This document shows, one piece after another, positions 1 to 27,931 of a stretch of 64,000 nt of DNA. The stretch comes from Selaginella moellendorffii (lineage: Eukaryota > Plantae > Lycopodiophyta): the NCBI RefSeq assembly GCF_000143415.4, contig NW_003314330.1:712089-776088 (forward strand), given 5' to 3'. The position numbers and the translations under genes are program-made. The number at the start of each line of letters is the position of its first letter. Position 1 is the stretch's first letter. The notes beneath the pieces were generated by a model, which had not been told where the DNA came from, did not search any database, and saw only the letters and a program-made list of their open reading frames with translations.

Positions 1-1922
1 TCTATGAAGCTGTGAGAACAAAATCCCTAGGCCCCAAAGTGGAGCCAGAATGGTGCCACGTGGTAGTGGCCGAAGCGAAAGCAAACAAGTGGACACATTT
101 GGACTAAAAGCTCCAACTTCAAAGGTCGAGAGCGGGAGTGGAACTCCCAACAAAGTGCTCGAGGAATGAGCACAAAGCGAGCCATAAGCGAGGCTCTAAA
201 AAGGGACCCGAAAGGACCAAACCATGACACGTGGAAGTGTCCGAGATAGAGTCCGAGGTGGACCCGAGATGGAGTCCGAGATAGACCCGAAAAGCTCTAT
301 TTCGTTAAAGTGGGATTTATTCAGTAAAATGGGACTAGGTACAAATTTTCAAGTATTTGAAAATGACGTGAAATTATATGTTTTTTGTCCAGGGGCTAGA
401 CATATCTGGGGCATGGTGACTAGCGCGGTGACTTTGTGTCCAGACTGAGTCCATCTGGTTGTATAATAAATCTCATTGTCAAGGTGAACAAGCCGAATCT
501 GAAGCTAAAGAAGAGCGATGGCATGCGCGCACACACTATTTGTTTGTTCATTGAGTGTGTGGTGAGCTTTCCAAGATGAATGTCATTCCTATTAGCCAGA
601 CATATAACTTAATGGTGAGAACATTTAGATATTATTCAATGTTATCTTTTTCTAACGAATCTAATTGTGAAGGTGTAGCAAGAGGCATTGCTAGTCTGGA
701 GAAGTCATTTAACTCATTTGACCCTTAGTATATTTTCATGAAACTAAATAACATTCATATTATTAAGGAATTTCTTTAGTACCTTTTTTTTACGACATAG
801 AGGCTTGCATTTCTTTCAAAGGTGATTTAGTAAAAGGCCTGAGGGCACATGCCATTCTATTTCTTAGACCGGTATTAAGATATACTAGTGCAAAGGGAAA
901 AAGGTATTTGGTGATCAAGTAAATAGCATGAGGGCATACACCATTATAAGCCTAAGCGCTAGTGGACACCTCCTTTTTGGTACTCTCAGCGGTACTATCA
1001 TCCTTCTCCAGGTCAGTTGTTTTGTTTTGGATTGTTGTCTCTGACGTTACTGGGGCGTTCTCGATAGTTGTTAATGTTGCCGTTTGTTCAGAAAAATGAT
1101 CACCTGGAGTATAGTATGGGGAGTTTGGAAGACTTATATATTCTACATCTTCACCTATCTCCTTCTCCATCTCTTTTTCTGCCTCACTTACAGATTTTGT
1201 GCTTGCTATGAGAACACTCTTCACCCTAAAATATGGAGTTCATTGTGTTATAAAAGGAAACCAACACACACGCTGCAAGGGAATGATGGTACATAAAGCA
1301 CGTAAGCCCACAATATGGGTTTATGTGCCATTAATATGGGCCACACGCCATATTATTAGATTTATGCACGTGTGATTGGTAAATGCATATGTCACATCAT
1401 CTTTGTTTTACCTCACACACTATATCAGGCCTAATGAACCATATCACATGTGCGCACATGCTATATATATGGAGAAGTATTATGCAAGGATAGAAAAATT
1501 CAATGCATGATTGTGGAGAGCAATGGCATGAAGCCACATGCTAAATAACATTTTAGAGAAAGAATTAAAATAGAAACATGCAAACAGTATTGAGTGGACC
1601 AAGACTTAGAAGTGCATAATTGAATGAGGTATTTCTAATAAATATTTCACTCACCTTATATAGGAATGGCTACCACTCTCAAATGGCGTATCGCCTCATG
1701 CCATCACCTCACAATTTGTTATAACAATCCGATGAATTCATATTCGGCTTGTTCACCTTGAACTTTAAGTAAGATTTGCTAGAACAACTAAGAATTTATA
1801 CTTGTTATTTGTATCATCTCACCTAGGAATGGCGTAAGGCCACATGCCATCACGCCTCCTCTGATTCAGATTCGGATTGTTCACCTTGAAATAAAATACA
1901 TTAGAAACTTAGTAAAGGAATA

Positions 1923-4648
1923 TTAATGAATCTCACCTTGAACCCGGGTTATGAATGCTCTTGTTGCATCTCTTGCATGGTCTGGCAAGGTGATGGTGGC
2001 ACTCTGCTTCCGCATCCAACCATGCACAACATTATCCATTGATATGCTCATGCTGGGATCCCTTGGATTCAGCACCCATCTCTTTTCTAGGCAATCCTTC
2101 GTATATCCGGAACTTGGCTTGAACCACTCCACAGTTACATTGAAGGAGTTAGTTTCCGCGTCCTCCTCTACATCAGTGATGCAGCGCCCCACCCATATAA
2201 TTTGTTTTTTATTACTGGGTCTGACAAGCACGACCATTCCTTTGCAGACCTGTACTGGATTGAATGCTGAATCCGGCTTCTTGTTCCTCGGCCCACAATA
2301 GTGATCCTCAACATCGTTATCTGTCACTGCATTTCCAGAGGACATTGTTCCGCTACTATCTGGTGCTCTGGGTTCTGGCCAAAAGGACTCTTCCAATTCT
2401 TCATATACAACTGCCCTATTTTGGATAGCAGATATAATCTTCTCCCAGTATTCGAGCAAAGGCTTGCACCTCTTAAAATAGGATTCTCCACCAAACACCA
2501 ACCCCCTCTTCCAGAAGGCAATATGCTGTCTAATCCCGGCCACTATACTTTCCTGGTCTTTGAGTCCATCCGGGTGCATCGGCCGTGGGGAACCCTGAGG
2601 AATCATAGGTTCCCCAGTTATGGGATCTCTCTTGAAGAGTTCAATGCCATCCACTGGCAGCCACATTGTGTCCCATTCTCTCATCTTGTACTTCATCACT
2701 GGAGCACCGTCACGCATGTTGAAATGAAACTGAAGAGGCTTGGAGTGGCCAATCAGCGTTTCGGATCCGTCCCTGATGTAGCCTCTTACAAACCCCTTAA
2801 AGTCTGGAACCTCTGTCACAAGTGCAGCTTCAACAGTGCCTTTGATGCAATTTTGGAATTCATCGTAGAGTTGTGGGAGGGTGAGGACATTGGATCGCCG
2901 GAGGGACTCTGCCAGGTGATTGAACATGGCATCGACGTCTTCATGAGTGTGCCCAACCATGAGAAAGCCAAGTGTAACCGTTTCAAATATGCCTTTGGCA
3001 ACAAGCATCGCCAAGTACGCGAAGACGTACATGTTTTTGTTCTCACTGCCAGCATTGTCTGTTTGGAGCAGAAGATGGGGTGGAAGGCCACATCGGCTGC
3101 AAGAACTTCCTTGAGATTCTGCTTCATTTGGATGAGGCTGTGCATTCACTGGGCGACCAGCCTCGTTGGAATGGCATGAGGCCTCACATGATAACCCTAC
3201 AATCTGACGGCCAACATATTCACTGGGATGGCATGGGGCCCCACGCGATACTGCAAGCCTTTGCTCCTCCTCCAACTGAACCCTGTATGGGGTTCGATCG
3301 ACAAGGGCCTTATGCAAGGGTTGGCCGTTCAGCTCAGTCTGCATACTTTGCAGAGACCTTAAGTGTTTTGCTAGGGACGCAATCATCATGTTTGCACCCC
3401 CGCCACCCCATAGAGGTACAAAGAAGTTCCCATAGTTTTGGGCACCATGCCCATGAGCGATTATGCCAAACAGAGACACAGGCAGCTACATGGATGAAGA
3501 GATTGCCTTGGGGGTAGGATTGAGTCGAGGTAAGCACGTCTTTTTCTGGTCCATTTTGTCGTGGATGATGCAGAGGTAAGAGTCAGGTCTCTCCATGGAG
3601 AGAATCCTGTTATGATAATATGCAGTCCTGCAGCTTCTCTGCTCGATGTTGTGGTCGAGCCGCCTTCTAACCAACGTCTCTCGCTCTTGAGCACTGCAAG
3701 AACTCTTCGACAAAGCCATTTTGATAGCAGTGCACTCGTCACACTTTGAAAAGCTGGAGTACTTTCCTATACTCACATCCCTGAACCTGTTGCTCCACAA
3801 TCTACTAAATCTAGATTGGCTCAGCTTCTTGTAGCCATTACTCTGGAGTTCCCGATTCACATCTTCCAATATGGCCCCCTTGGTATACATGGAAGGGAGA
3901 ACTCGTTGGGTGTCTCGAGTTCCATCTTCCAAGAGGCGGGTTTTATGTGGTTGCTGCTCGCTACATGTCTCGACAAACCTTTTGAAGATTGCCTCTCCAT
4001 ATACAACATGACCCCTGGTTTTGTGAGTACCGTCGTTCCCATGGACTGCCTATTGAACCCTTTGTTCCTCGAACTCAGTTTTGATTCTGTAGAATGTGGT
4101 TCGAGGGACTCCATAAATGATTCTCTATGCCTTCATGCAGACCAAACCCCTCTGGAAGACCATGCCCCCCACCTGATGTTCTGAAGCATCAACAGATGAC
4201 CGTAATGCCTCATACACAAAATTCGAGACCATTCGAACCTCCATCGCCATTTTCTGCCTTTTCGGTTCGTTGCTCAAATCCCTTTAGCTGCGCTTTAGGA
4301 AGGTGTACTTTCTTTTCCCATGAAGAGATGTTCTGTCATCAGTTGTAGTGGTGTTTGATTGTGAATCCTTCATATTTTCAAATACTAAGCACCTCAATTT
4401 CCACCGCACAATGCTTCCAATAGTCAGACTGTTTTCTTCTGTGTCAACAACCTCTAAAATCACAACTCCAATATCATCCCAGCCCAATTGTTGATTAGCA
4501 ACTGCATCTCTTGGATCGACAACTATGGCTAAGCCCTCAGCTACCACCTCCCCCTCGGGGTTGTTTAGAAACACCTTTGCCTGAATCCATATAGCACAGT
4601 TTTTAAGATCCACGGAGGGAACATGCGTCGCACTTGCGGAGGCCATTC
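1923..4648 (-). pseudogene. Sola-like DDD transposase, copy 1 (nonsense codons and internal deletions)
   Basis: Motifs FSKCDEC, IIHDKMDQ, LQTDNAGSENKN, FLMVGHTHEDVD; TAG stops at 3486-3488 and 4125-4127; deletions relative to copy 2 near 4224 and 4638. Confidence 0.8.
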
Positions 4649-5831
4649 TGAAAGTGCAGAAAAGAAGTTAAGACCATACAAAAAATGATTGGAGAATGGC
4701 CTAAATCATAACATACCAAACAACCTCAATAGCATGAGGCCACATGCCATTATTCAAACATGCTATTGACACCCACGTGAAATTTCGCATTCACAAAATT
4801 GGCATGAGGCCTCATGCCATCTTGATAAACACACAGCTACAGGCAGGTAAAGAAACTATTGGCAATATGCTAGTGATGAACTTGCAAGCCCCAAGATGGC
4901 ATGAGCCCTCATACCATTAGTGGTACCGTAGTGCCGCTCGCACCACCACAACTGCTTGTAGTGCCGCTCGCACAAACTGCCACTCGCATAAACTGCCGCT
5001 CACAATGGCGCTCGCAATGCCGCAACCGCTCGTAGACGCATAAACCACAGCTCACAACGCCGCTTACACAAGCAGCGCTCACTGCGCTCAGCGGAACCAA
5101 GAACATGGCGCACAAAAATGATAGACCTAGGAATGAGTTCGAGAATTCAAAAATAACACACGCTTGAACGTCACATCAAATCCTCTGACAAACCAGATCT
5201 TATGATTCCTTTGACAAATTTCAAACTGAGTAGCTTCTAGACTTTGCTGTCGGAGGTTGAACTTTGTCACATCATGTCCTTGCCTCGATCCAGCTGTGCC
5301 ATGTCAGTGATTCGAACTTTGCCATGCCATGTCAGCGATCTGCGCCAAGATTATTCGCCGTGTAAAGGAATAATTATGCTGTGTGTGTACGTCCATTTAT
5401 GGCAATATAAGGCCACATGCCATTCAAAGAATAATGCTAGTCGAGCATTTTTTGGTGCATTTTTGGGTTCAAAATTGCATGAGCCCACACGCTATAAAGT
5501 TTACCTGTACCAAAAATAGAAACAGCTTTATTTACTTGGGAATTTAAGTGGTTGAGGCATTTTTAAACTTACAAACACATGCCCTACTTACATTCCTTTG
5601 GTTGCTTAAAATTCAAAAATATTATAAACCTTTCTTTTTGCATTTTCAATGTTTTCAATTATGGTTTTTGATTTTCGCAGGACCAGCCTAGTAATCTATT
5701 TGCATCCCGTCATGTTTATAGCTAGCTTTCGTTTGTCCCCTTCGCTAGCCTAAGATACATCTGCTCGGCATCTGCCTCTTACAGCATTTGCCCAGAAAGG
5801 GCATCTTTCTTCACGCAGCATTTGCCACATG

Positions 5832-5857
5832 TTTAGGGTTTAGGGTTTAGGGTTTAG
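5832..5857 (+). repeat. Plant telomeric repeat (TTTAGGG)3.7 / telobox array
   Basis: TTTAGGG x3 plus TTTAG; same array at 20205-20230. Confidence 0.9.
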
Positions 5858-7096
5858 CAATTCAGTAGCTTGATAAATATGCAAATACAAAACTTGATGC
5901 AAAATCCTTGATATGTCATAATGCCCCTAGGACCCATAAACACATTTCATAGAGAGGGTCCTTTCATTTCATAACTCCTTACGTAGATCTTGGTGAAACC
6001 AGAGTTAGTGAAGTTAGTTTCTTGTGATCCCGCATCTAATTGTGATGTCCCTTTGCAGTGTCGATGGAAAGGTCAATGCACACAAAACTGTAAAATCTTG
6101 GAGCAAAATAACGGTTGGATCTATGGCAAATGCCCCTGAAACATTGTAAGGCTTGTGTGGTCTCATGTGGTGTCCGATCGAGATGCTTCTTTACAGGGTC
6201 ATCAAGAAAGACATTGTATACCATTCTGTAAAATCTAATTGCGATCTAACGGTTGGATCTCCAAAAAACTCAAGAAAATCTCGCGCGTGTTAGAATATTC
6301 TAGGAATATACTCCTATGTGCCCCTAAAAATGGCATGCGGCCCCACGCCATTCAAGAGATAACGCCAGATGACGCCGAGCATTTTTTGGTGCATTTTTTG
6401 GGATTTTTTGTATACCATTCTTTATTTAGCTGAACATCTGGCATTTTTGGAAATACAAGATGCTTTGGAATATCCAATCATGCATGGTATAAATATAGCG
6501 AGGGTATTAAATGATATCCCAATCATGATCTTTCTTTTGGATTTCACGTGCATGCAGTCCGAGGAATGATGACGTTGCGGATTTCTTTTGGATTTCACGT
6601 GTATGCATGCGCGCGGCGATCTAGAAATTAATGGTGGCGCCCAAGTCCGAGGAATGATGACGTTGCGGGATTACCAACTGTCGTGACATTTCGCGCGTGT
6701 GAGGTTAGGTTTTGCATTTTGCTTCATACTCGCGCCCGCACACTCGCGCTCGCATCGCGCTCCCACTCGCGATCACGCTCACATTCGCGCTCATCTACCT
6801 TCTCTACAGGTTTCTCATGTGCATTGGCGTCCACTCACGCTTGCATCACACTCGCGCTCACATCGCGCTTGTGTGCATCGGCATCCACTTCAAGACACAC
6901 CCAGTTTGTAACTTCGCCGCCAACTCCGCCGCCCACTCCACCACCCACACGCAGCCCACTTGGCGTCCCGGGAGATTTCAGCGCCACTCTCCAACTGTAA
7001 GTGGCAGAGTAGCCTTGCTGCTACTATCTGCTGCACACACAGTGCACATTCGCCAGCGAGTCCGGCCTCAATTGTCACGCCTCCATTCGGCTTCAA

Positions 7097-10000
7097 ATGG
7101 TAAGTCTTTTAGGCCAAGTAGAAAATGGCATGAGGCCACATGCCATTCAGTAGCAACATTGGTATGCACCGATTGGGCTCTCGAGTGCAGTCCGGTTACA
7201 GATGGCGTGTAGCCTCACGCCATCTTAGGATGCAGCCTCAAGACATCTGATGCAGTGGTGAATGGCATGTGGCCTCACGTTATTTCCAGCTGCTAGCTTT
7301 TCATCTGTCAGCTCTAATTGTTGTGCATTTCTGAACAGGCGAGGAATTGTGTTCTTCTTCCAGCCACTGTCAATGTGGATGCAGAGAAGGGGGAGGAGCT
7401 CACCAGTTGGACTTTCGGGATGGAAGGCGAGGATCTGAGGCTGTACAACACAGATGGTGGGAGAAAAGAATGCATGGGGATCCTCATCCAAGTGACAGAC
7501 ACTCCATGCAGTTCCATGCAAGAATATGGACTGACACTTGTGGTAGAGACAGCGTCCGCCTTCAAGATCCACCTTGCACATCCTAGCGGCTTCCCGGAGG
7601 GGGGCAGCGGCTATGAGGAATTCCTAGAGGGAGCTAGGGAGAGGTTGTCCAGGAGGCCCACAATTTCAAAGACGCTGCGGGTCTATGAAGATCACATGGA
7701 ATCCACGGACCTCACCTACGGCGATGTTCAAAAACTATATTCCAACATTGAGCCGTTGAGAGTGACTCCAGTTCGCGAAGCGAAGGGGAAGGGGGTCGAT
7801 CTAGAAACTACCCCGAAGCAGAAAAGGGTGGTCAAGCTCAAGTCGACGTCCGACTCTCCTGCTCCAAAAAAGAAGCTACTCGGTGATGCCATTGCCTCGG
7901 GTTCGAACACTACACCCACCAAAAAGAAGAGCCGCAAAGAGCAGAAAGAGCAAGAAGAGGCAGCAAAAATCGTCGCAGATAATAGTACTTGTTACTATTC
8001 CAACAAAGTATATACAATCGACGTGAGCCATATCGACATCCAAAGCAAATACAACCACAGGCTAGTATCTGATGAGTGGGTGGAGAAACTGAAGCAGAAG
8101 ATGCTGGCAAGTCCAGTAACACCCGACATCGCAGACGTGATCCCCTACTACCGAACAATGAAGGGCGAGACGAGGTTTCCAGACTTGATCAATAGGAAGG
8201 TGTTGGACGATCAGAACATCCGGTTCTATGCCGTCTCCAGGCAGCATTCTAGCTTGGCGATGCAAGAGATAGTTGTGGATATTATGGTGGGCGAGGAGGT
8301 GAAGAAAGTCTTCAAGACAAGAGTTGTCCGCCTGATAAAAGGCAACTCGCCCCTCCGATCTATCATATACATCTCCCACGCACAGAATGTCAAGCAAGAA
8401 ACGTGCTACAAATCGGGTCTGCACGAGACATTGGCACGAACACGGAAGCTCTGGGTTCAACTGAAGAATCCACAAAAACCAGGACAAGGACGTGCACTAG
8501 CAACTAGCGCCTGGCAGGTAAGCCTCGTTGCATGTGGCATAGCATGTGGCCTCACGCCATTTCCATTGCAGGAATTCTCGAGTCTTCTCTCGAAAACACT
8601 GGGGGTCAATGACACACTCAGCATCCATAACATTCTACTCGCGACAAAAATTGTTTTTGACAAATGGGTAGATGTGCTGAGGAGGTACCATGACGGGGAG
8701 TTGCTAAACTCAATGGGTGTGGAGGACGGACGGAAGCCCAATGATTTGAAGCTCGACGCCTTGCGTTTCTCGCGATCTCTAGACAACGACGACCTTCTGA
8801 CAGTGGCTAATGCTCTTCTACGTGGTGAGGTAGTCTTCAACAAGACCAAAATGACTCCCGGCCATATTGTGACATACGAGGACTTGTGCACGACTCTGAG
8901 AGCTCGTGCGCTATTGAAGGATTGGATCTTTGAGCAAGTGGCCATGGAGAGGGTGAGCATTGACACCACGCAAGAGATGATGGAAGAGCTGGAGTTGTCA
9001 AATGAAGATATCGATGAGTACGTGAAGGGGGCCCCCAAGTTCATCGATCTGCTGCGGGATGCCACGAAAAGTAAAGCTGAGAAGTTGGATCAGTATCCAA
9101 ATTTCATTAAAAGGGATGTCGACCGCCGGCTTTAGAAACAGCTCGACCCCGCAGCAGAGGCCTATCGAGAACCTTACCGGGTATACGTGAATTCGGATGA
9201 GGATCAAAGGTGGAGGAGCATCGTTTCCCGCGGAGATGAGCAGGTCAAGAACATCTTTTGTGTGATGGACTTCACAAACGAGGAGATCACTCATGCAGAC
9301 AAAGTCAGCTCCATCATTGACTTAATGGTGGGACTTGCGGAGGTGGAATCTTCAGTCCACTATATAATCTACGACTCCAAATCCTATCACAAGTTCTGGA
9401 AGGCCTTGAACGAGGTGAAGGCTCGGTTGAAAGGCAAGGAGATGCGGGAGATCCATGGGATAATGGCTAAGAAGAAGATACCGACGAATCCGCATCTTCA
9501 CACTCGCCCTTGTTATTGGTCCTGCAGCAGAGTGGGACTGGAGTGACTTCCCAGCTTCGTTCGACAAGGCCGATCGAATTGATCTGAGGGAGGTCAATTT
9601 ACCCGTGCCTGAGGAACTGAAGACGGCTATGGAGCTTTCGAATCCAGAGAAAGCTCCAGGTGCAGCATGGGAAATGCTCAGCTGGGTCTTCAACGCAATA
9701 GCGGGTGGGTCACCTGCTTCCGACTCCAAGGGCAAATGCGTTGTCGAGTACAACTGTGGTGGACTATTCTTTCAAGCCGCACTACTCAAGGGTGTCCCGT
9801 GTGTTGTGGTGACAAACTCCATTGAAGAGGTGATTTCAATGGAGCATATAATTACAGTTGCCAAAGAAAAACAGTATCTTCTTTGCGAACCTGGTGAGTA
9901 TGCACTTTAAGTTTAAATGTTATCTCACAAGCTCTGTATGCAGGAGCGTGGCCACCCCCAGATGCTGAAACGGCGTTAACAGCTACTGTTGAAGATACCC

Positions 10001-11778
10001 ATGTTGGGCCGAGGTCACAACCTGCACAAGGTAAGGTCACGTGAGGCCTCACGCCATTTTGATTATAGATCGTTGTGAATATTCAGACACGAGGACTGAA
10101 AAGCGCACTGGTGGCGCATCGAAGAAGGACAAACAGACAAGCAATAGGAAAAAAGGAGGTACAAATTATATTTGCAATGGCGTGTGGTCTCATGCCATTC
10201 CTTGCAGGAGACACTTCTTCAAAGGCAAAACAGGCAAGCACCAGCCAAGTACAACGGACGAGAGGTACCAATCATTTTTGTTATACGTGAATTCTCATGC
10301 CATTGCTTCTTGCAGCTCAAATTCCAAAGAGACTAGGGCAAGCAGCGTAGACCTCACGACAAGAACCTGAAGGTTTGATGGCGTGTGGCCCCACGCAATT
10401 AACTAATGTTCTTGCAGATCGCGTCGAGGAAATCAAACGGAACAACATGCCTCCAGTGGAGGAGGGGGAGGCCTCGGAGAGTGATAAGGAGAGTTCCGAA
10501 ACATGTACGATCATGACATATGGCCCCATGCACTTATCTAAGTTTGTATTTCAGGGGAACGAGTTGAACCAATGGAAAACTTTATGAAAGGTAACTTAAA
10601 AATATTATGGGATGTTGCATGTGTTGATGCAATAATATACAGTTCAAGTGCCAAGGAGACGTCGTGAACCTCGAATTAGGCTACTTGCAAAACAGCTTTC
10701 AGACGCTGTAGACAAAGAGATGGACAATCGACCAGGGCAGAGGAGGAAGGGTAAAAGCATTTGTGTGCATGTCCTCATGCTATTTCTGTAGAACGGGCGC
10801 ATAAGAAACGAAAGCGAAAGGGAATTGAGGAGCAGGCACCTGAAGATGCGGAAGGCACGACAGAGCCTCCAAGGACGGGAAGTAAAGCGTCATGGTTATT
10901 GCGTGGGTCCTCATGCCATTTCTTGCAGATCAAGCTCAAACTGACAGTGGTCATAAAAAGTGAAAGCACGTTGGATAGTCGTCAGGATCAGAGGCATTTG
11001 ATTCGAAAAGGAAGAAGGGCAACGAAAAGATGATAGGTAATGGCTCGCGGTTATGGCGTGTGTGCTCATGCCATTCATTGCAGATCAAGGGCTAAGTGAA
11101 AGCAGCCAGTCACCACCTCCTGACTCAGATTCCTATGGCGGACTCCCCTTCCCCAATCTCAATGGAGAGGTACAATGGATGAGGGATGCTTTTCAAGTCA
11201 GGGCCACGTTTTTCTCATCTTGTCGTCTTCGAAGAGTGCAAGAACGTGCAGAAACCATGTTAAGACAGTCGGGTGAGGATACGGTCCTAAGTCACGCACT
11301 AAAACAAGCTATGGATGTCTTGTATTTTGAGATGGAGACTCGGCCAGATGATTTTCCCAAGATGGTCCTGGAAGAACAAGCCATCCAGCCTGAGCAGCCT
11401 ATGGAAGAAATGCAGGAGGGGGATGAGGAGCCAGAGAAAGATAATGAGCAGGAAGAGCAGAAGGACGAAGAGGAGGACAAAGAAGAGGAGGACGAAGAAG
11501 AGGAGGACGAAGAGGACTTGGATGGTCCTCACAATGGTGACGATCACAATAACGACGACGACGATGATGACGACGATGGCCAACCTGAGGTGGCCAAAGA
11601 GCAGCGGAGGAAGGTCATACAAGACAAACCATCAGGTAAATAATAGTACATCCATTCCTAACCTTTTACCATTTCTAACATTGTCCATGTAGGTCGCAGA
11701 GCAAATGGTAAGTAGAGATTATTCAATTGAATTTACAAACTCTAGCCTTTAGTGTCGAGGAAGGATAGTGCCAAGTAA
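7097..11778 (+). pseudogene. Multi-exon transposon cargo gene: ParB/DGQHR-like domain, degenerate beta-class MTase-like fold, long charged low-complexity tail (copy 1)
   Basis: ATG|GTAAGT at 7097-7105; ORF 7318-9135 with IDVSHI..NHRLVSDEWVEKLKQKM..FYAVS(R/G)QHS; in-frame continuation after TAG 9133; many 41-56 nt GT-AG introns. Gene ends are approximate. Confidence 0.6.
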
Positions 11779-11790
11779 GGGTCGAAACGT

Positions 11791-13402
11791 ATGTCCAATC
11801 CTTCAGAATCAATAGTGCGCCCAAGTGATATCGGTCCTAGTTCCTCAATAGCAGTTGATGGTAAATACAATATAGTCGATTCAATGTGCTAATGAGTTTG
11901 TTTTTAGTACCACGGGAGGATACCATCTCAATCGAAGGGAGATATTTGGACATGCATATGGATCCGCCAGTGGACTCTACTTGCCTGCAAGAGTCATCAG
12001 AGCTGGTGGAGGCTACTATCCATATCAACGCCAAGCAAGCTGACCACGCTCCACTTGATGCTACCCATACCACTGAGTCAATCTTGTCCACATATCCAAC
12101 TGACGGTGACCAGGCGCCATTGGACCCGCATGAGGCCGCCCCAGCCGCCGAGCCGGTCGTATCTTCATTTCCAATGGACTCAACGTGTGCCCAATCATCT
12201 GACTACGCGCCGTTGGAACCTCCCTACACTGCCCCTGCTGCCTGTTCGGTCATGTCCACTTTGCCAACGGAGGCACCAGCTGAAATGGCGTGTGATCACA
12301 CGCCATCGGAACCACCCCATGCCACTGTTGAGCCAGTTGTACCAGAGTCTACAGCTGAAATGGCATGTGCCCACACGCCATCGGATGCGATTGACCCCAC
12401 ATTGCAAAGGAGAGTATTTCCGCCCTTCACGTTTCCTCGACCAAAACCCTCTCAACGACCATCGGGAGCACCATTCGCTAATATTGTAGATGGTAAAATT
12501 GACTTGTACCATTTTTTATGCTGACGCATTTCATTTCAGAGTCACGACGAAGGTACTGTATCGTTTTTGATCTGAACGGTGTCCTTTTCTCCCATGAGTG
12601 TGGGTCGTCCTCGAATGTCACTGCACCCTCCAAAGCCTACGGTCGCAAGTTGGTCAAAAGAGACAGATTCACATTAATCACACGGGAGAAACTGCGGGAT
12701 TTAATAATGACCATGCGACACTTAAAACAGAGGGCCAGGTTCAATTTGCAATTGGGAGTTTGGACATCCATGATGCGCCACAATGCATTAACGTTGCTAC
12801 AGATGATGCACGATCAGACACGAGTAATATTACCATTTGACTTTCTCCTAACGCAGGAGGATTGCTTGACTATGGTCCATGTGAGGGGTAGCAAGCCCAT
12901 CTTCGTCAAGCCAGAGGCTGTAGTGATGAACCAGACTGCTAGGTCAAGTGAAATCCTCATCATCGATGACTCGCCGATTAAAACCGCAGCGAACACGCAC
13001 ACATATGCAGTGCACCCCATCTCTTGCAGTATGGAAACTAGGGAGAAGAAACCGTATGTTCTGGGGGACCTTGCAAAACGGCTTGGAGCGATGGTGATAG
13101 AGAACCGGCCAATCCAGGAGGTGGCTGCAGAAATCAACCAAATGGCAGATGGAATGGTATATCAGAAGCCATTTGATCGGACAGACACCAGTCATCATTT
13201 ATGGCATGTATATTGTCTAGCCAAGCACTATCCGCATCTCCATAATCTGCTCAACCAAATGGGTTCTTCGACCACTGAACATGAGCGTGGACGTATTAGA
13301 GAAGAGATGGCATTACTATTGGGTTTAAATCCTGATAGTGTGGAGAGTGATGAAATTCCAAGATTATTGTATAGGCATTGGAGGCAAAAAATAACAGTCT
13401 GA
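11791..13402 (+). CDS. FCP1/SCP(NIF)-type HAD phosphatase with Pro/Ala-rich N-terminal extension (transposon cargo, copy 1)
   Basis: Motifs IVFDLNGVL, VWTS, TQEDC, FVKP, IIDDSP; phase-compatible introns 11861-11907 and 12493-12539 join the 11886 ORF to the HAD exon. Confidence 0.8.
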
Positions 13403-15618
13403 GATGGCATGTATTTATTTAAAAATGTAACTTATTATGGCATGGGGTTCCATGCCATTGTATTAATATTAAAAGACAATTCTTTGAGAGGATTTGCATT
13501 ATACTAGAAGTGTTACAGCATGTTATTGGAAGTCTACGAAGTTGTTTTATTAATAAGGGGAAAGTAAAGATTGAATGGGGACTTGGGCTCCACCTAGACT
13601 CGGAGCAACTGAGCCAATATTAAAAGGATGGAAAGAAATTGGACGACGATGACAAGGAGAAGAGAGAGGTGAAGCAGTGGCAGGGGGAGGAGAAGTGATT
13701 GAGTAGACATTTCCTTGTTTAAAATAAAATGGCATGTGCCTCAATGCAGTTGAATTTTGTTATATTTATATACTATATAAAGGTTTGGAAACCTTATTTT
13801 ACAAGTGGGATAATGACAATTCCCACTTTAACGAAATAGAGCTTCGAAGTGAAGTCCGATATGGAGTCCGAGATGGACCCGAAATGGAGTCTGATATGGA
13901 GTCCGAGATGGACCCGAAATGGAATCCGATATGGAGTTCGACATGGAGTCCGAAATGGAGTCCAATATGGAGTCCGAGATGGAGTCCGAGATGGAGTTTG
14001 ATATGGAGTCCGAGATGGAGTCTGATATGGAGTCCGAGATGGAGTCCGAGATGGACCCGAAATGGAGTCCGATATGGAGTCTGAGATGGACCGAGACATA
14101 TCTGGGGCATGGTGACTAGCGCGGTGACTTTGTGTCCAGACTGAGTCCATCTGGTTGTATAATAAATCTCATTGTCAAGGTGAACAAGCCGAATCTGAAG
14201 CTAAAGAAGAGCGATGGCATGCGCGCACACACTATTTGTTTGTTCATTGAGCGTGTGGTGAGCTTTCCAAGATGAACGTCATTCCTATTAGCCAGACATA
14301 TAACTTAATGGTGAGAACATTTAGATATTATTCAATGTTATCTTTTTCTAACGAATCTAATTGTGAAGGTGTAGCAAGAGGCATTGCTAGTCTGGAGAAG
14401 TCATTTAACTCATTTGACCCTTAGTGTATTTTCATGAAACTAAATAACATCCATATTATTAAGGAATTTCTCTAGTACCTTTTTTTTATGACATAGAGGC
14501 TTGCATTTCTTTCAAAGGTGATTTAGTAAAAGGTCTGAGGGCACATGCCATTCTATTTCTCAGATCGGTATTAAGATATACTAGTGCAAAGGGGAAAAGG
14601 TATTTGGTGATCAAGTAAATGGAATGAGGGCACACGCCATTATAAGCCTAAGCGCTAATGGACACCTCCTTTTCGGTACTCTCAGCGGTACTATCATCCT
14701 TCTCCGGGTCAGTTGTTTTGCTTTGGATTGTTGTCTCTGACGTTACTGGGGCGTTCTCAATAGTTGTTAATGTTGCCGTTTGTTCAGAAAAATGATCACC
14801 TGGAGTATAGTATGGGGAGTTTGGAAGACTTATATATTCTACATCTTCACCTATCTCCTTCTCCATCTCTTTTTCTGCCTCACTTACAGATTTTGTGCTT
14901 GCTATGAGAACGCTCTTCACCCTAAAATATGGAGTTCATTGTGTTATAAAAGGAAACCAACACACACACTGCAAGGGAATGATGGTACATAAAGCACGTA
15001 AGCCCACAATATGGGTTTATGTGCCATTAATATGGGCCACACGCCATATTATTAGATTTATGCACGTGTGATTGGTAAATGCATATGTCACATCATCTTT
15101 GTTTTACCTCACACACTATATCAGGCCTAATGAACCATATCACATGTGCGCACATGCTATATATATGGAGAAGTATTATGCAAAGATAGAAAAATTCAAT
15201 GCATGATTGTGGAGAGCAATGGCATGAAGCCACATGCTAAATAACATTTTAGAGAAAGAATTAAAATAGAAACATGCAAACAGTACTGAGTGGACCAAGA
15301 CTTAGAAGTGCACAATTGAATGAGGTATTTTTAATAAATATTTCACTCACCTCATATAGGAATGGCTACCACTCTCAAATGGCGTATCACCTCATGCCAT
15401 CACCTCGCAATTTGTTATAACAATCCGATGAATTCATATTCGGCTTGTTCACCTTGAACTTTAAGTAAGATTTGCTAGAACAACTAAGAATTTATACTTG
15501 TTATTTGTATCATCTCACCTAGGAATGGCGTAAGGCCACATGCCATCACGCCTCCTCTGATTCAGATTCGGATTGTTCACCTTGAAATAAAATATATTAG
15601 AAACTTAGTAAAGGAATA

Positions 15619-18600
15619 TTAATGAATCTCACCTTGAACCCGGGTTATGAATGCTCTTGCTGCATCTCTTGCATGGTCTGGCAAGGTGATGGTGGCACTC
15701 TGCTTCCGCATCTAACCATGCACAACATTATCCACCGATATGCTCATGCTGGGATCCCTTGGATTCAACACCCATCTTTTTTCTAGGCAATCCTTCGTAT
15801 ATCCGGAACATGGCTTGAACGACTCCACAGTTACATTGAAGGAGTTAGTTTCTGCGTCCTCCTCTGCAGCAGTGATGCAGCGCCCCACCCATATAATTTG
15901 TTTTTTATTACTGGGTCTGACAAGCACGACCATTCCTTTGCAGACCTGTACTGGATTGAATGCTGAATCCGGCTTCTTGTTCCTCGGCCCACAATAGTGA
16001 TCCTCAACATCGTTATTTGTCACTGCATTTCCAGAGGACATTGTTCCGCTACTATCTGGTGCTCTGGGTTCTGGCCAAAAGGACTCTTCCAATTCTTCAT
16101 ATACAACCGGCCCATTTTGGATAGCAGATATAATCTTCTCCCAGTATTCGAGCAAAGGCTTGCACCTCTTAAAATAGGATTCTCCACCAAACACCAACCC
16201 CCTCTTCCAGAAGGCAATATGTTGTCTAATCCCGGCCACTATACTTTCCTGGTCTTTGAGTCCATCCGGGTGCATCGGCCGTGGGGAACCCTGAGGAATC
16301 ATAGGTTCCCCAGTTATGGGATCTCTCTTGAAGAGTTCAATGCCGTCCACTGGCAGCCACACTGTGTCCCATTCTCTCATCTTGTACCTCATCACTGGAG
16401 CACCGTCACGCATGCTGAAATGAAACTGAAGAGGCTTGGAGTGGCCAATCAGCGTTTCGGATCCATCCCTGATGTAGCCTCTTACAAACCCCTTAAAGTC
16501 TGGAACCTCTGTCACAAGTGCAGCTTCAACAGTGCCTTTGATGCAATTTTGGAATTCATCGTAGAGTTGTGGGAGGGTGAGGACATTGGATCGCCGGAGG
16601 GACTCTGCCAGGTGACTGAACATGGCATCGACGTCTTCATGAGTGTGCCCAACCATGAGAAAGCCAAGTGTAACCGTTTCAAATATGCCTTTGGCAACAA
16701 GCATCGCCAAGTACGCGAAGACGTACATGTTTTTGTTCTCACTGCCAGCATTGTCTGTTTGGAGCAGAAGATGGGGTGGAAGGCCACATCGGCTGCAAGA
16801 ACTTCCTTGAGATTCTGCTTCGTTTGGATGAGGCTGTGCATTCACCGGGCGACCAGCCTCGTCGGAATGGCATGAGGCCTCACGTGATAACCCTACAATT
16901 TGACGGCCAACATATTCACTGGGATGGCATGGGGCCCCACGCGATACTGCAAGCCTTTGCTCCTCCTCCAGCTGAACCCTGTATGGGGTTCGATCGACAA
17001 GGGCCTTATGCAAGGGTTGGCCGTTTAGCTCAGTCTGCGCACTTTGCAGAGACCTTAAGTGTTTTGCTAGGGACGCAATCATCATGTTTGCACCCCCGCC
17101 ACCCCATAGAGGTACAAAGAAGTTCCTATAGTTCTGGGCACCATGCCCATGAGCGATTATGCCAAACAGAGACACAGGCAGCTGCATGGATGAAGAGATT
17201 GCCTTGGGGGCAGGATTGAGTCGAGGTAAGCACGTCTTTTTCTGGTCCATTTTGTCGTGGATGATGCAGAGGTAAGAGTCAGGTCTCTCCATGGAGAGAA
17301 TCCTGTTATGATAATATGCAGTCCTGCAGCTTTTCTGCTCGATGTTGTGGTCGAGCCGCCTTCTAACCAACGTCTCTCGCTCTTGAGCGCTGCAAGAACT
17401 CTTCGACAAAGCCATTTTGATAGCAGTGCACTCGTCACACTTTGAAAAGCTGGAGTACTTTCCTATACTCACATCCCTGAACTTGTTGCTCCACAATCTA
17501 CTAAATCTAGATTGGCTCAGCTTCCTGTAGCCATTACTCTGGAGTTCCCGATTCACATCTTCCAATATGGCCCCCTTGGTATACATGGAAGGGAGAACTC
17601 GTTGGGTGTCTCGTGTTCCATCTTCCAAGAGGCGGGTTTTATGTGGTTGCTGCTCGCTACATGTCTCGACAAACCTCTTGAAGATTGCCTCTCCATATAC
17701 AACATGACCCCTGGTTTTGTGCGTACCGTCGTTCCCATGGACTGCCTGTTGAACCCTTTGTTCCTCGAACTCAGTTTTGATTCTGTAGAATGTGGTTCGA
17801 GGGACTCCATAAATGATTCTCTATGCCTTCATGCAGACCAAACCCCTCTGGAAGACCATGCCCCCCACCTGATGTTCTGAAGCATCAACAGATGACCGTA
17901 ATGCCTCATACACAAAATTGCGAGCTGCCTTCCAGGACAATGTCTTGTATCTTGCTCTCTCCTCTTCAATAGCATCCCAATCAGCATGTTGACAGCACCT
18001 CCTCTTGCAACAAGCAACTGTCGAGACCATTCGAACCTCCATCGCCATTTTCTACCTTTTCGGTTCGTTGCTCAGATCCCTTTGGCTGCGCTTTAGGAAG
18101 GTGTACTTTCTTTTCCCATGAAGAGATGTTCTGTCATCAGTTGTAGTGGTGTTTGATTGTGAATCCTTCACATTCTCAAACACTAAGTGCCTCAATTTCC
18201 ACCGCACAATGCTTCCAATAGTCAGACTGTTTTCTTCTGTGTCAACAACCTCTAAAATCGCAACTCTAATATCATCCCAACCCAATTTTTGATTAGCAAC
18301 CGCATCTCTTGGATCGACAACTGTGGCTAAGCCCTCAGCTACCACCTCCCCCTCGAGGTTGTTTAGAAACACCTTTGCTTGAATCCATGTAGCACGGTTT
18401 TTAAGATCCATGGAGGGAACATACGTTGCACTTGCGCTGCCCCCAACATCTGCTTTCTTCTGAAGATTTTTCAAGGCAACAACAACATTTACCCTGACGA
18501 CCATCTCTCCTCGTTCAATAGCGACCACATTCTCATCGAAGACAGTCTCTACTGATACAGCAGCATTGCCTTCCCCAAGCCTTTGACAGTGTATAACAAA

Positions 18601-18687
18601 GTTCCGATCCATAGACACAAGGGTTCCTTTTGCAACTCTCTTCCCACCATTCAAAATGTAAACCTTTTCCCCAACCCTGAAGGCCAT
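15619..18687 (-). pseudogene. Sola-like DDD transposase, copy 2 (about 1020 codons in one frame, three TAG stops)
   Basis: ORFs 18052-18687, 17821-18048 and 15712-17628 are in the same frame, separated only by TAG at 18052, 17821 and 15712. Two N-terminal VAxG...V repeats of Tnp1/En/Spm-like type, then CMKA*RIIYGV..FY, HGN, CDEC and the DDD core. Confidence 0.82.
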
Positions 18688-21456
18688 TCTGAAAGTGCAG
18701 AAAAGAAGTTAAGACCATACAAAAAATGATTGGAGAATGGCCTAAATCATAACATACCAAACAACCTCAATAGCATGAGGCCACATGCCATTATTCAAAC
18801 ATGCTATTGATACCCACGTGAAATTTCGCATTCACAAAATTGGCATGAGCCCTCATGCCATTTTGTTATACCCACACATGTAGGCAGGTAAAAACATACA
18901 TGACAATACGCTAGCCTATAGCTAAAGAAGTTAAGCCCATACAAAAAATGTTTAGAGAATGGCCTAGATCATAACTTACAAGACAACCCCAATACCAATA
19001 GGCCACATGCCATTTGTCGAACGTGATATTGATTCTCACGATAAATTTGCCGGTCACAAAGATGGCATGAGGCCTCATGCCATCTTGATATACACACAGC
19101 TGTAGGCAAGTAAAAACATACATGACAATACGCTAGCCATGAAATTGCAAGGGCCCAAGATGGCATGTGGCCTCATGCCATTTCTAAATATGGTCCTAAG
19201 CCATTCCATAGTGAACATACCAGGAAGCACAAGTGCCGAATATCAAGAGGAAGCAGTAGCCACACCAAAGACAGTGCCGCTCGCAACACCGCAACTACTC
19301 GTAGCGCTGCTCGCAACACCGCAACTGCTCGTAGCGCCGCTCGCACAAACTGCCACTCGCATAAACTGCCGCTCGCAATGGCGCTCGCAATGCTGCAACC
19401 GCTCATAGACGCATAAACCACAGCTCACAACGCCGCTTACACAAGCAGCGCTCACTACGCTCAGCGGAACCAAGAACACGGCGCACAAAAATGATAGACC
19501 TAGGAATGAGTTCGAGAATTCAAAAATAACACATGCTTGAACGTCATATCAAATCCTCTGACAAACCAGATCTTATGATTCCTCTAACAAATTTCAAACT
19601 GAGTAGCTTCTAGACTTTGCTGTCGGAGGTTGAACTTTGTCACATCATGTCCTTGCCTCGATCCAGCTGTGCCATGTCAGTGATTCGAACTTTGCCATGC
19701 CATGTCAGCGATCTGCGCCAAGATTATTCGCCGTGTAAAGGAATAATTATGCTGTGTGTGTACGTCCATTTATGGCAATATAAGGCCACATGCCATTCAA
19801 AGAATAATGCTAGTCGAGCATTTTTTGGTGCATTTTTGGGTTCAAAATTGCATGAGCCCACACGCTATAAAGTTTACCTGTACCAAAAATAGAAACAGCT
19901 TTATTTACTTGGGAATTTAAGTGGTTGAGGCATTTTTAAACTTACAAACACATGCCCTACTTACATTCCTTTGGTTGCTTAAAATTCAAAAATATTATAA
20001 ACGTTTCTTTTTGCATTTTCAATATTTTCAATTATGGTTTTTGATTTTCGCAGGACCAGCCTAGTAATCTATTTGCATCCCGTCATGTTTATAGCTAGCT
20101 TTCGTTTGTCCCCTTCGCTAGCCTGAGATACATCTACTCGGCATCTGCCTCTTACAGCATTTGCCCAGAAAGGGCATCTTTCTTCACGCAGCATTTGCCA
20201 CATGTTTAGGGTTTAGGGTTTAGGGTTTAGCAATTCAGTAGCTTGATAAACATGCAAATATAGAACTTGATGCAAAATCCTTTGATATGTTATAATGCCC
20301 CTAGGACCATAAACACATTTCAATAGAGAGGGTCCTTTCATTTCATAACTCCTTACGTAGATCTTGGTGAAACCAGAGTTAGTGAAGTTAGTTTCTTGTG
20401 ATCCCGCATCTGATTGTGATGTCCCTTTGCAGTGTCGATGGAAAGGTCAATGCACACCAAACTGTAAAATCTTGGAGCAAAATAACAGTCGGATCTATGG
20501 CAAATGCCCCTGAAACATTGTAAGGCTCGTGTGGTCTCATGTGGTGTCCGATCGAGATGCTTCTTTACAGGGTCATCAAGAAAGACATTGTATACCATTC
20601 TGTAAAATCTAGTTGCGATCTAACGGTTGGATCTCCAGAAAACTCAAAAAACTCTCGTGCGTGTCAGAATATTCTAGGAATATACTCCTATGTGCCCCTG
20701 AAAATGGCATGCAGCCCCACGCCATTCAAGAAATAACGCCAGATGATGCCGAGCATTTTTTGGTGCATTTTTTGGGATTTTTTGTATACCATTCTTTATT
20801 TAGCTGAACATCTGGCATTTTTGGAAATACAAGATGCTTTGGAATATCCAATCATGCATGGTATAAATATAGCGAGGGTATTAAATGATATCCCAATCAT
20901 GATCTTTCTTTTGGATTTCACGTGCATGCAGTTCGAGGAATGATGACGTTGCGGATTTCTTTTGGATTTCACGTGCATGCATGCGCGCGGCGATCCAGAA
21001 ATTAATGGTGGCGCCCAAGTCCGAGGAATGATGACGTGGCGGGATTACCAACCGTCGTGACATTTCACGCGTGTGAGGTTAGGTTTTGCATTTTGCTTCG
21101 TACTCGCGCTCGCATCGCGCTCCCACTCACGATCACGCTCACATTCGCGCTCATCTACCTTCTTTACAGATTTCTCATGTGCATCGGCGTCCACTCACGC
21201 TTGCATCACACTTGCACTCGCATCGCGCTCATGTGCATCGGCGTCCACTTCAAGACACACCCAGTTTGTAACTTCGCCGCCAACTCTGCCGCCCACTCCG
21301 CCACCCACACGTAGCCCACTTGGCGTCCCGGGAGATTTCAGCGCCACTCTCCAATTGTAAGTGGCAGAGTAGCCTTGCTACCACGATCTGCTGCACACAC
21401 AGTGCACATTCGCCAGCGAGTCCAGCCTCGATTGTCACGCCTCCATTCGGCTTTAA

Positions 21457-24400: not shown

Positions 24401-25202
24401 GGCAAGCACCAGCCAATCTCAAACTGACAGTGGTCATAAAAAGCGAAAGCACGTTGGACAGTCGTCGGGATCAGAGGCGTTTGATTCGAAAAGGAAGAAG
24501 GGCAACGAAAAGATGATAGGTAATGCCTCGCGGTCACCACCTCCTGACTCAGATTCCTATGGCGGACTCCCCTTCCCCAATCTCAATGGAGAGGTACAAT
24601 GGATGAGGGATGCTTTTCAAGTCAGGGCCATGTTTTTCTCATCTCGTTGTCTTCGAAGGGTGCAAGAACGTGCAGAAACCATGTTAAGACAGTCGGGTGA
24701 GGATACGGTCCTAGGTCACGCACTAAAACAGGCTATGGATGTCTTGTATTTTGAGATGGAGACTCGGCCAAATGATTTTCCCAAGATGGTCTTGGAAGAA
24801 CAAGCCATCCAGCCTGAGCAGCCTATGGAAGAAATGCAGGAGGGGGATGAGGAGCCAGAGAAAGATAATGAGCAGGAAGAGCAGAAGGACGAAGAGGAGG
24901 ACAAAGAAGAGGAGGACGAAGAAGAGGAGGACGAAGAGGACTTGGATGGTCCTCACAATGGTGACGATCACAATAACGACGACGACGATGATGACGACGA
25001 TGGCCAACCTGAGGTGGCCAAAGAGCAGCGGAGGAAGGTCATACAAGACAAACCATCAGGTAAATAATAGTACATCCATTCCTAACCTTTTACCATTTCT
25101 AACATTGTCCATGTAGGTCGCAGAGCAAATGGTAAGTAGAGATTATTCAATTGAATTTACAAACTCTAGCCTTTAGTGTCGAGGAAGGATAGTGCCAAGT
25201 AA
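21457..25202 (+). pseudogene. ParB-like/MTase-like cargo gene, copy 2 (stop and three deletions)
   Basis: Homologous to 7097-11778; FGQHS motif; TAG at 22875 and 23493; deletions near 23838, 24416 and 24533 relative to copy 1. Confidence 0.6.
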
Positions 25203-25940
25203 GGGTCGAAACGTATGTCCAATCCTTCAGAATCAGCAGTGCGCCCAAGTGATATCGGTCTTAGTTCCTCAATAGCAGTTGATGGTAAATACAGTATAGT
25301 CGATTCAATGTGCTAATGAGTTTGTTTTTAGTACCACGGGAGGATACCATCTCAATCGAAGGGAGATATTTGGACATGCATATGGATCCGCCAGTGGACT
25401 CTACTTGCCTGCAAGAGTCATCAGAGCTGGTGGAGGCTACTATCCATATCAACGCCAAGCAAGCTGACCACGCTCCACTTGATGCTACCCATACCACTGA
25501 GTCAATCTTGTCCACATATCCAACTGACGGTGACCAAGCGCCATTGGACCCGCATGAGGCCGCCCCAGCCGCCGAGCCGGTCGTATCCTCATTTCCAATG
25601 AACTCAACGTGTGCCCAATCGTCTGACTACGCGCCGTTGGAACCTCCATACACTGCCCCTGCTGCCTGTTCGGTCATGTCCACTTTGCCAACGGAGGCAC
25701 CAGCTGAAATGGCGTGTGATCACACGCCATCGGAACCACCCCATGCCACTATTGAGCCAGTTGTACCAGAGTCTACAGCTGAAATGGCATGTGCCCACAC
25801 GCCATCGGATGCGATTGACCCACATTGCAAAGGAGAGTATTTCCGCCCTTCACGTTTCCTCAACCAAAACCCTCTCAACGACCATCGGGAGCACCATTCG
25901 CTAATATTGTAGATGGTAAAATTGACTTGTACCATTTTTT

Positions 25941-26825: not shown

Positions 26826-27931
26826 GATGGCATGTATTTATTTAAAAATGTAACTTATTATGGCATGGGGTTCCATGCCATTGTATTAATATTAAAAGAT
26901 AATTCTTTGAGAGGATTTGCATTATACTAGAAGTGTTACAGCATGTTATTGGAAGTCTACGAAGTTGTTTTATTAATAAGGGGAAAGTAAAGATTGAATG
27001 GGGACTTGGGCTCCACTTAGACTTGGAGCAACTGAGCCAATATTAAAAGGATGGAAAGAAATTGGACAACGATGACAAGGAGAAGAGAGAGGTGAAGCAG
27101 TGGCAGGGGGAGGAGAAGTGATTGAGTAGACATTTCCTTGTTTAAAATAAAATGGCATGTGCCTCAATGCAGTTGAATTTTGTTATATTTATATACTATA
27201 TAAAGGTTTGGAAACCTTATTTTACAAGTGGGATAATGACAATTCCCACTTTAACGAAATAGAGCTTATGGCTAGAGCACCCAAGGGCGGAAGGCAGGGA
27301 GAGTACCCAATTGGCTCGCGTAAGGCCACGGTGTTCCGAAATGTTGTCCCAAAGGCCCAGACTGTGGAAAGGAAGAGGAGCAGTCCTCTAGGGCAATGAC
27401 CAAGGACACAGTCGTGTGGTGAGGAAGTCCTAGAGGACCGTGGGACTTAGTGGTCGGGCCTGTGGGCCTCGATCCAGTGGCAGTGTTGGCAAACACGGCC
27501 AAGGGCAGAAAGGGACTTAGTGGGGACTGACAGAGGGATATTGGGGAAGGCTATTCCCCTTGTCGGTGGGCATCCTAAGGATGCTAAGGAGTTGATCTGA
27601 GATGACCACTCACGGATGGTTTGCCTAGTCTTGGAGAGCCAAGACTGTGATGCAAGTGGTATTGGACTACCAGTGTGGCAAAGGTGATTGGGCATGGCCT
27701 TAGCGTAACAAGCTGCCATGTCAGTGGGACCTTTGAGTGTCGGTCATGGGATCGGACACGTGGAGCACTTGGACCAAGTGCAAATGTTGAGTGGCATGGA
27801 TGCCATTCTCGGGGCTAGCAAGTCCCAAGTCCTGAATTGGACTTATGGAGGTTGTGAATGAGACTCCTCCAAGTGGTCGGAGGTGTGGTTAAGTGACTAA
27901 AGTAGAATGGAAAATTTAGTCGCTTACAATT

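Follow-up and report, generated by a model that had tools for sequence, protein, structure and literature searches.

An element-specific palindrome of a Sola-like transposon from Selaginella moellendorffii as a candidate docking site for a predicted ParB-like protein encoded in cis

Analysis of a 64,000-nucleotide stretch of the genome of the lycophyte Selaginella moellendorffii (contig NW_003314330.1, positions 712,089 to 776,088; here called the window) revealed two copies of a 13.5-kb Sola-like DNA transposon that carries many copies of a 22-bp palindrome with the consensus ATGGCRTG-WGGCCW-CAYGCCAT, in which two half-sites (ATGGCRTG) surround the centre WGGCCW. The two genes of the element are divergently oriented, with the transposase encoded on the minus strand and a passenger (accessory) protein on the plus strand. 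The palindromes are element-specific and are kept out of constrained coding DNA and, on balance, we think that they act as double-stranded docking sites for the predicted ParB-like protein of the passenger gene, that is, as self-recognition sites parked in non-coding DNA. An initial annotation of the same DNA had reported one such palindrome in each tiny intron of the passenger gene, an observation that was partly confirmed, being largely real but overstated and selective. New here is that the 3' arm of the palindrome lies at branch-point distance in six of the nine tiny introns that bear it.

Sites were scored with a weight matrix trained only on 15 sites outside the plus-strand gene, and a score of at least 8 bits defined a strong site. 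Copy 1 (292-13844) contains 29 strong sites, with a rate of 0.035 per kb in shuffled sequence, and none was detected in the remaining 36 kb scanned (27.3-55 kb and 55.8-64 kb); the latter stretch includes the host gene used as a control, in agreement with the earlier statement that host introns lack the palindrome. Ten strong sites are located in introns of the passenger gene, two in its exons, two in the transposase open reading frame (ORF) and 15 in other non-coding DNA, three of these last within a predicted intron in the 5'-untranslated region (5'-UTR) of the transposase gene. Non-coding DNA therefore harbors 25 of the 29 sites (p = 5e-7), and the introns of the passenger gene carry 10 sites in 977 nt (10.2 per kb) as compared to 2 sites in 5329 nt of its exons (0.38 per kb; p = 4e-7), which fits the previous proposal that introns serve as parking places for binding sites. 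The introns are also richer in sites than the other non-coding DNA of the element, where the density is 3.3 per kb (p = 0.008; p = 0.027 for the tiny introns alone), so that the possibility of the motif being no more frequent in introns than elsewhere in non-coding DNA was not realized. The association with introns is thus a matter of enrichment, however, as 19 of the 29 strong sites are situated outside the introns of the plus-strand gene. Some arrangements around the sites were also seen. The predicted stop codons abut palindromic sequence in both genes, the transposase stop running into a full palindrome (1829-1852) and the passenger stop into a half-site (13400-13411). The last small exon of the transposase gene appears to be duplicated together with its palindrome (479-540 versus 1828-1889 and 1737-1761), one duplicate being in tandem and one inverted near the left end. 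In both copies, the divergent promoter region contains about four units of a plant telomere-type repeat, TTTAGGG (5831-5857, 20204-20230).

There is a small but real chance that the sites are instead bound by the transposase or by a recruited host factor, for internal binding or activation, and that the ParB-like passenger is unrelated to them. Nine sites are found in the two subterminal regions, and transposases and TnpA are described as sequence-specific activators acting at clustered motifs (10.64898/2026.08.24.746577). However, the motifs of TnpA cluster at the termini according to the same source, whereas the palindrome is absent from the terminal inverted repeats (TIRs) and reaches its highest density within the passenger gene, 3-7 kb from the right end. 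Also, three metagenome contigs encoding relatives of the transposase (L001-L003; 40-41% identity) show no repeated palindrome in 2-4 kb, although these contigs are short and contain no passenger gene.

The ten segments listed as introns by the initial annotation are all of the GT-AG type and 41-56 nt long, and nine of them fit a frame model of the passenger gene with 16 introns. The remaining one, 7100-7150, has TAG immediately behind it in both copies; its removal would join the ATG to a stop codon, whereas a longer intron (7100-7338) restores the frame. The 54-nt intron at 8518 is in frame as stated earlier, and it is also free of stop codons. Alignment with the Selaginella RefSeq protein P0008 runs from W-Q to E-F across this intron with a gap of 18 residues, and in homologue P0004 both the alignment and the ORF end at the same point; since the position is common to homologues of about 26-30% identity, the intron position is old. 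Between 9944 and 12492, the length of each of the 13 internal exons is divisible by three and the flanking introns are of phase 1; phase 1 with symmetric exons in fact holds for the whole set of 14 introns from 9894 to 12539. The spliced frame contains 4 internal stops in 940 codons as compared to 35 and 67 in the other frames, and these stops (two TAG, one TGA, one TAA) are of the type expected of C-to-T decay. In contigs from run X2, probably a DNA run, 2 bases are inserted close to the frameshift of copy 1, and an intron contains a 4-base indel. A deletion of 685 nt (10246-10930), present in copy 2 and as the majority form in X2 (depth 79 versus 5), takes out six introns and 399 exon bases and preserves the frame only when the introns are removed by splicing. 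We infer, with good support from these data, that the predicted introns are spliced.

Among the 15 tiny introns of this model, nine bear the motif, seven of them as a strong site and two as a degenerate one. The claim of one palindrome per tiny intron therefore stands for these nine, but it had left out six introns in which the motif is missing, with best matrix scores of -3.9 to -20.1. From the 8518 intron on, seven of the nine motif-bearing introns score 17.8-32.5 bits, and the site at 7125 scores 35.4 bits. The degenerate sites amount to 5.7 bits in the 10265 intron (shuffle p < 0.001) and 1.9 bits in the 10751 intron (p = 0.006); in an X2 contig, 9 extra bases at 10768 complete the latter palindrome. 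The distance of the palindrome from the intron donor varies from 5 to 21 nt.

The two arms of the palindrome vary independently, with 228 paired positions as compared to 230 expected by chance from shuffling, and the R/Y pair forms an A-C mismatch in 9 of 29 sites; this independence favors a double-stranded DNA site bound by a dimer over an RNA hairpin. T7 is invariant in 58 of 58 half-sites and the changes at CpG are one-sided (33 to CA, 3 to TG), as would be expected of a constrained DNA site. Folding z-scores of the tiny introns range from -2.5 to +1.3 and are below -1.7 in three of nine cases, no pattern of strand-specific G-U wobble was noticed by eye, and Rfam returned three sub-threshold chance matches. 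As to the position of the sites, the invariant A of the 3' arm (CTCAY) is found 15-19 nt from the acceptor in six of nine introns (placement p = 0.007), and the T of yUnAy is present in all six overlapping sites as compared to 17 of 44 other half-sites (p = 0.006), both tests being post hoc, made after the pattern had been seen. In five of the six motif-free introns, branch-point-like words occur at 15-17 nt. Among the three introns whose site is 5'-placed, two have such a word of their own at 12-16 nt. Within introns the 3' arm is better preserved than the 5' arm. In the simplest reading, some letters are used in common by site and branch point, which leaves room for the two within 50 nt. The titles retrieved in a literature search included none on this element or on branch-point palindromes, Repbase and most subscription papers being outside its range.

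It is improbable that the palindrome acts on the pre-mRNA itself, where a hairpin or a bound protein would hide the branch point and thereby throttle or autoregulate the splicing of the passenger transcript. The placement of the 3'-arm A, which resembles that of the words in motif-free introns, the T of yUnAy and the better preservation of the 3' arm would all suit such a role, and to this extent a connection with splicing persists; the earlier idea of an RNA hairpin that affects splicing, however, is weakened by the lack of arm covariation and by the folding scores. Furthermore, many of the 19 sites outside the introns of the plus-strand gene lie in DNA that is probably untranscribed, and the packing of two signals into 50 nt explains the overlap with branch points equally well.

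How the introns and sites arose was studied in the sequences flanking the motif. Outside the motif, identities between introns amount to 0.27 versus 0.26 and to 0.39 versus 0.34 in shuffles (p = 0.37 and 0.09), and pairs other than 10882/11037 share on average 11.5 of 40 flanking bases as compared to a background of 10.6. The motif has been kept while its flanks diverged to background, which indicates selection on the motif. Clearly, sites have been gained by tandem duplication, as seen for a 222-bp duplication in copy 2, a 75-nt exon repeat and the 10882/11037 intron pair. We consider it quite unlikely, though, that the whole pattern is a neutral by-product in which an ancestral unit of intron and exon with the motif was duplicated repeatedly within a low-complexity linker. 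Such a history would account for the uniform phase 1 of the 14 introns with their symmetric exons and for the 27 of 40 flanking bases, exon sequence included, shared by the introns at 10882 and 11037, but the flanks of the other pairs are unlike each other although the 22-mer was kept, which again requires selection; the old phase-0 intron at 8518 also bears a site, and similarity was detected in only 2 of 78 exon pairs (p < 0.03).

That an introner with the palindrome as its core inserted and made the introns, as had been suggested, is very improbable and largely refuted: as with introners, many short introns (nine) share sequence, and the 3' arm with a short pyrimidine tract makes up most of the 3' splice region, but similarity is confined to the internal 22-mer and does not reach both intron ends, which is the defining test in the available text of PMC9860276, TIRs at intron ends are absent in 15 of 15 cases with edge duplications of at most 2 nt in 14 of 15 and 4 nt in one, the distance of the motif from the donor varies, no copy occurs in host introns and only this one element is concerned, the position of the 8518 intron is old, and the introner survey described in that source found none in land plants.

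For the passenger protein, residues encoded by 7960-8517 were assigned by ESM Atlas to clusters of DUF3723 (0.95) and ParB_N (0.92). This part is followed by a helical region, a possible degenerate methyltransferase-like domain, a low-complexity micro-exon linker and a NIF/HAD-like tail. In the Selaginella homologue P0008, the C-terminal half resembles a PF01555 methyltransferase cluster (ESM 0.89). A structure model of the homologue reached a predicted local distance difference test score (pLDDT) of 57, with less than 50 in the C-terminal half; when this low-confidence model was used for searches, Foldseek gave methyltransferase-rich rows including CcrM and M.BceJIV, all with E > 0.1, and VIA gave a best Z of 6.7, to unrelated folds. 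DPPY/NPPY/SPPY-type motifs are absent from the translation of the window and from six of six homologues (D/N starts by pattern, SPPY by reading), and the hidden Markov model (HMM) libraries contained no match for this domain. Searches of PDB sequences gave nothing credible and word-index protein searches no homologue. HMMER gave seven homologue matches, and the only named close homologues are from S. moellendorffii and a liverwort; P0002 and P0005 were dropped as repeat-rich chance matches. The S. moellendorffii genes LOC9650508 and LOC9646204 (P0001, P0008-P0010) are homologous to the helical and methyltransferase-like parts and start just after the ParB-like domain, and they possibly represent a domesticated derivative, with XP_024528744 among the proteins concerned. 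No ParA-like ORF was noticed among the ORFs of the element, and a literature search on DUF3723 together with ParB found nothing.

Several observations weigh against a role of the palindromes as docking sites for the passenger protein. The ParB-like region had no match in Pfam, PHROG or NCBIfam and its identity is predicted from language-model features alone, a single-sequence structure model was unusable (pLDDT 34), and the arginine motif typical of ParB is not evident in the passenger. The methyltransferase identity is likewise a lead only. Six of the 15 tiny introns lack a site, and since intron boundaries were set by visual inspection, the nominal p of 6e-7 for the 13 exons divisible by three is overstated. 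In X2 the most abundant variant lacks six introns, including four or five that bear sites, and at least in non-autonomous copies these sites are therefore dispensable. Finally, none of the 16 junctions was encountered in the reads or contigs of seven runs labelled RNA or 'RNA?', and the few RNA-labelled reads or contigs overlapping introns 1, 8518 and 11636 show no splicing, although they are of low depth and may derive from DNA or from other copies. The junctions were thus not confirmed by transcript reads, the check proposed in the initial annotation. The lack of junction reads is not evidence against splicing, as coverage was minimal. Eight of the 23 listed runs were covered. About 12% of each of the raw RNA runs X8-X10 was examined, where nearly all matching reads were rRNA-like ones at 6994-7033 and none spanned a junction; in these runs the element looks silent. 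A few contigs, all unspliced and without junctions, came from X1, X11, X12 and X20.

The 40 nt at 6994-7033 in the 5' region of the passenger gene (about 21354-21393 in copy 2) match abundant reads, copy 2 being closer to them; the flanks of these reads presumably correspond to the 3' part of the large-subunit ribosomal RNA (rRNA), and the stretch may be a piece of rRNA that was captured. At palindromes 7147 and 10058, X2 contigs have loose ends that run into DNA beside other palindromes; these ends were considered as signs of recombination and rejected, as contigs ending in a shared 22-mer suffice to explain them.

If the palindromes are docking sites, a dimer of the passenger protein would bind the two half-sites around the WGGCCW centre, and this binding would tag copies of the family along their whole length. 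Such tagging would most likely protect the activity of the copies from host silencing, in the manner of VANC, or organize the long element for transposition. Sites excluded from conserved codons would collect in UTRs, element ends, flexible coding linkers and introns; host introns of about 50-60 nt would leave room for one site, which in six of nine introns could be accommodated with its 3' arm (CTCAY) doubling as the branch point. As no catalytic motif is recognizable in the methyltransferase-like domain, tagging may consist in binding and not in methylation. A more far-reaching version is possible, though we would not expect it to hold: parS/ParB-like self-recognition in a land-plant transposon, with the ParB-fold passenger loading on palindromes all along the element. 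In the introns of about 50 nt of the passenger gene itself, site and branch point would have become one, to be read both as DNA dock and as splicing signal, possibly coupling binding to the expression of the passenger protein.

Bacterial ParB/parS systems combine palindromic sites across the replicon with a ParB-fold protein encoded in cis, which has a helix-turn-helix, binds cytidine triphosphate (CTP), spreads along DNA and has ParA as a partner. The element resembles them in the several palindromic sites spread along its length and the cis-encoded predicted ParB-fold protein; in contrast, no ParA gene was noticed here, and the context is eukaryotic chromatin. ParB-like accessory genes of algal transposons have been proposed to bind and modify their own elements, neither source describing a test of a target site (PMC12477816; 10.1101/2025.02.11.637652). 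In the Ectocarpus element Sola1-1_Ec32 (21.5 kb, 282-bp TIR, 4-bp target-site duplication (TSD), AA...TT termini), a gene on the strand opposite to the transposase encodes a ParB-like and N4C/N6A methyltransferase protein for which binding and modification of its own element was proposed (PMC12477816). The present element is likewise a long, Sola-like transposon with a 4-bp TSD and an accessory gene opposite to the transposase strand, predicted to encode a ParB-like followed by a methyltransferase-like domain, but it resides in a land plant, measures 13.5 kb with 27-bp TIRs, and its protein of about 1,776 residues has a micro-exon linker, a HAD-like tail and a degenerate-looking methyltransferase motif. 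Palindromes are not mentioned in the main text of PMC12477816, which describes no cis site. In Plavaka transposons of Bostrychia, the accessory gene PAG3 encodes a ParB-like protein, with adjacent inverted-repeat arrays as the proposed target (10.1101/2025.02.11.637652). A ParB-like N-terminus, here a predicted one, together with inverted repeats as proposed target is common to both systems, but the available text on PAG3 describes tandem arrays beside the gene and a 2-oxoglutarate (2OG) oxygenase partner, whereas the sites found here are single, dispersed and intronic.

For VANDAL21 of Arabidopsis, binding and demethylation by VANC21 have been demonstrated (PMC5735166; PMC10398659), and VANC21 binds motifs in introns and other non-coding DNA of VANDAL21 that were accumulated by tandem duplication (PMC5735166). 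Similarly, the element described here has an element-specific motif that is dense in intronic, intergenic and terminal non-coding DNA and was multiplied in tandem, and an accessory gene with variable exon-intron structure. In contrast, VANDAL21 is Mutator-like, its arrays consist of a 9-bp non-palindromic motif in the same orientation, and VANC is not known to have a ParB domain; the 4-bp TSD, the DUF7869 transposase and the absence of a VANC-type Pfam family on the passenger indicate neither a Mutator-like element nor a VANC protein. In our analysis the element would work like a VANC-type cis-tag system while being built like the algal ParB-accessory transposons, and it is not a VANC member.

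With about 30 copies of an element-specific candidate site of 22 bp, self-tagging could be checked with one binding assay. The predicted architecture would extend ParB-accessory transposons to a land plant and illustrate how minimal introns can accommodate sites that have letters in common with the branch point. If true, it would be a second strategy of anti-silencing or self-tagging in plants, independent of VANC and TnpA.

Table 1. Positions in the window of the transposon copies, their genes, predicted introns, palindromes and other features.
Feature	Position	Strand	Remarks
Copy 1, 13.5-kb Sola-like DNA transposon	292..13844		host site is LTR-retrotransposon DNA (LTR, long terminal repeat); 4-bp target duplication CGAA
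Left TIR, 27 nt	292..318	+	96% complementary to right TIR
Right TIR	13818..13844	-
Copy 2 of the 13.5-kb element	14094..27267		about 97-98% identity to copy 1; target duplication ATGG
Displaced left 106 bp of copy 2	53370..53475	+	100% match to 292-397; ATGG flank equals right flank of copy 2
Transposase gene, DUF7869, DDE-type motifs	1850..4646	-	decayed in copy 1
Remnant, predicted 5'-UTR intron of transposase gene	4648..4917	-	GT/AG by eye; sites 4729, 4799, 4896
Seven palindromes, left subterminal/transposase 3' region	518..1850		sites 518, 834, 923, 1443, 1523, 1683, 1829
Two palindromes within transposase ORF	3171..3249	-	lineage-variable insert
Three palindromes, divergent promoter region	5402..6351		sites 5402, 5474, 6330
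Passenger gene, 17 predicted exons, 16 introns, about 1,776 codons	7097..13402	+	decayed by stops and one frameshift
Intron 1, predicted, 239 nt, phase 0	7100..7338	+	palindromes 7125, 7202, 7262; restores frame
ParB-like/DUF3723-like N-terminal domain (predicted)	7981..8517	+	ESM Atlas; G-Q-H motif in copy 2 and two homologues
Predicted phase-0 intron, in frame, stop-free	8518..8571	+	palindrome 8539; position common to distant homologues
Possible degenerate N4C/N6A methyltransferase-like domain	9136..9893	+	pairwise E 9e-6 to P0008
Predicted phase-1 intron	10031..10086	+	palindrome 10036, 5' placed
Predicted phase-1 intron	10159..10207	+	palindrome 10177; 3' arm at branch-point distance
Predicted phase-1 intron	10265..10315	+	degenerate palindrome 10282, 3' arm intact
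Predicted phase-1 intron	10373..10417	+	palindrome 10378, 5' placed; separate branch-point-like word
Predicted phase-1 intron	10505..10554	+	palindrome 10513, 5' placed
Predicted phase-1 intron	10751..10791	+	half palindrome; full in X2 contig
Predicted phase-1 intron	10882..10928	+	palindrome 10898; likely duplicate of 11037-11083 (flanks 27/40 identical)
Predicted phase-1 intron	11037..11083	+	palindrome 11053
Predicted phase-1 introns without palindrome	9894-9943, 10591-10642, 11636-11692, 11708-11752, 11861-11907, 12493-12539	+
Two exonic palindromes (12285, 12360)	12285..12381	+	75-nt tandem duplication, Pro/Ala-rich exon
Last exon, NIF/HAD-like phosphatase domain, D-L-N-G motif	12540..13402	+	Pfam PF03031 E 6e-6, above cut-off
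Two palindromes, right subterminal region	13437..13750		sites 13437, 13729
Host subtilase gene, introns about 48-64 nt	55813..58165		used as host control

The transposase of copy 2 matches Pfam PF25273 (DUF7869; E 4e-43), probably a Sola-like transposase family; a literature search on DUF7869 found nothing. A predicted 52-nt intron near the 3' end of the transposase gene (1885-1936) is free of the palindrome. The counterpart of the 5'-UTR intron in copy 2 (19220-18689) contains five sites after the 222-bp duplication. Both copies have a 4-bp target duplication, TIRs are present, and the element has AA...TT termini, as in Sola1-1_Ec32. None of the two target duplications matches the AWWT preference reported for insect Sola1; in the available text of PMC12477816, the Ectocarpus Sola1 is likewise not described as AWWT and a 4-bp duplication is listed for Sola1. 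Duplication length, TIRs and motifs are compatible with Sola1, to which the element may belong. Viral contigs contained no exact match to the motif and no relative of the transposase.

Copy 2 lacks the stretches corresponding to 9477-9668, 10246-10930 and 11050-11108 of copy 1. Its left 106 bp are found 39 kb away from where they would be expected (14093/14094), with the matching target duplication, and this displaced end is due either to a rearrangement or to an assembly join among LTR copies. From 27268 to 55000, the window consists of nested, decayed Gypsy-type LTR retrotransposons with arrays of 12/35-nt repeats in their LTRs, and these LTRs host the two Sola-like copies. An AT-rich stretch (54689-55585; GC about 0.27-0.33) contains a stop-to-stop ORF of 298 codons that is unlike the neighboring host DNA and shows a weak match to B-lectin (E 4e-4, below the cut-off).

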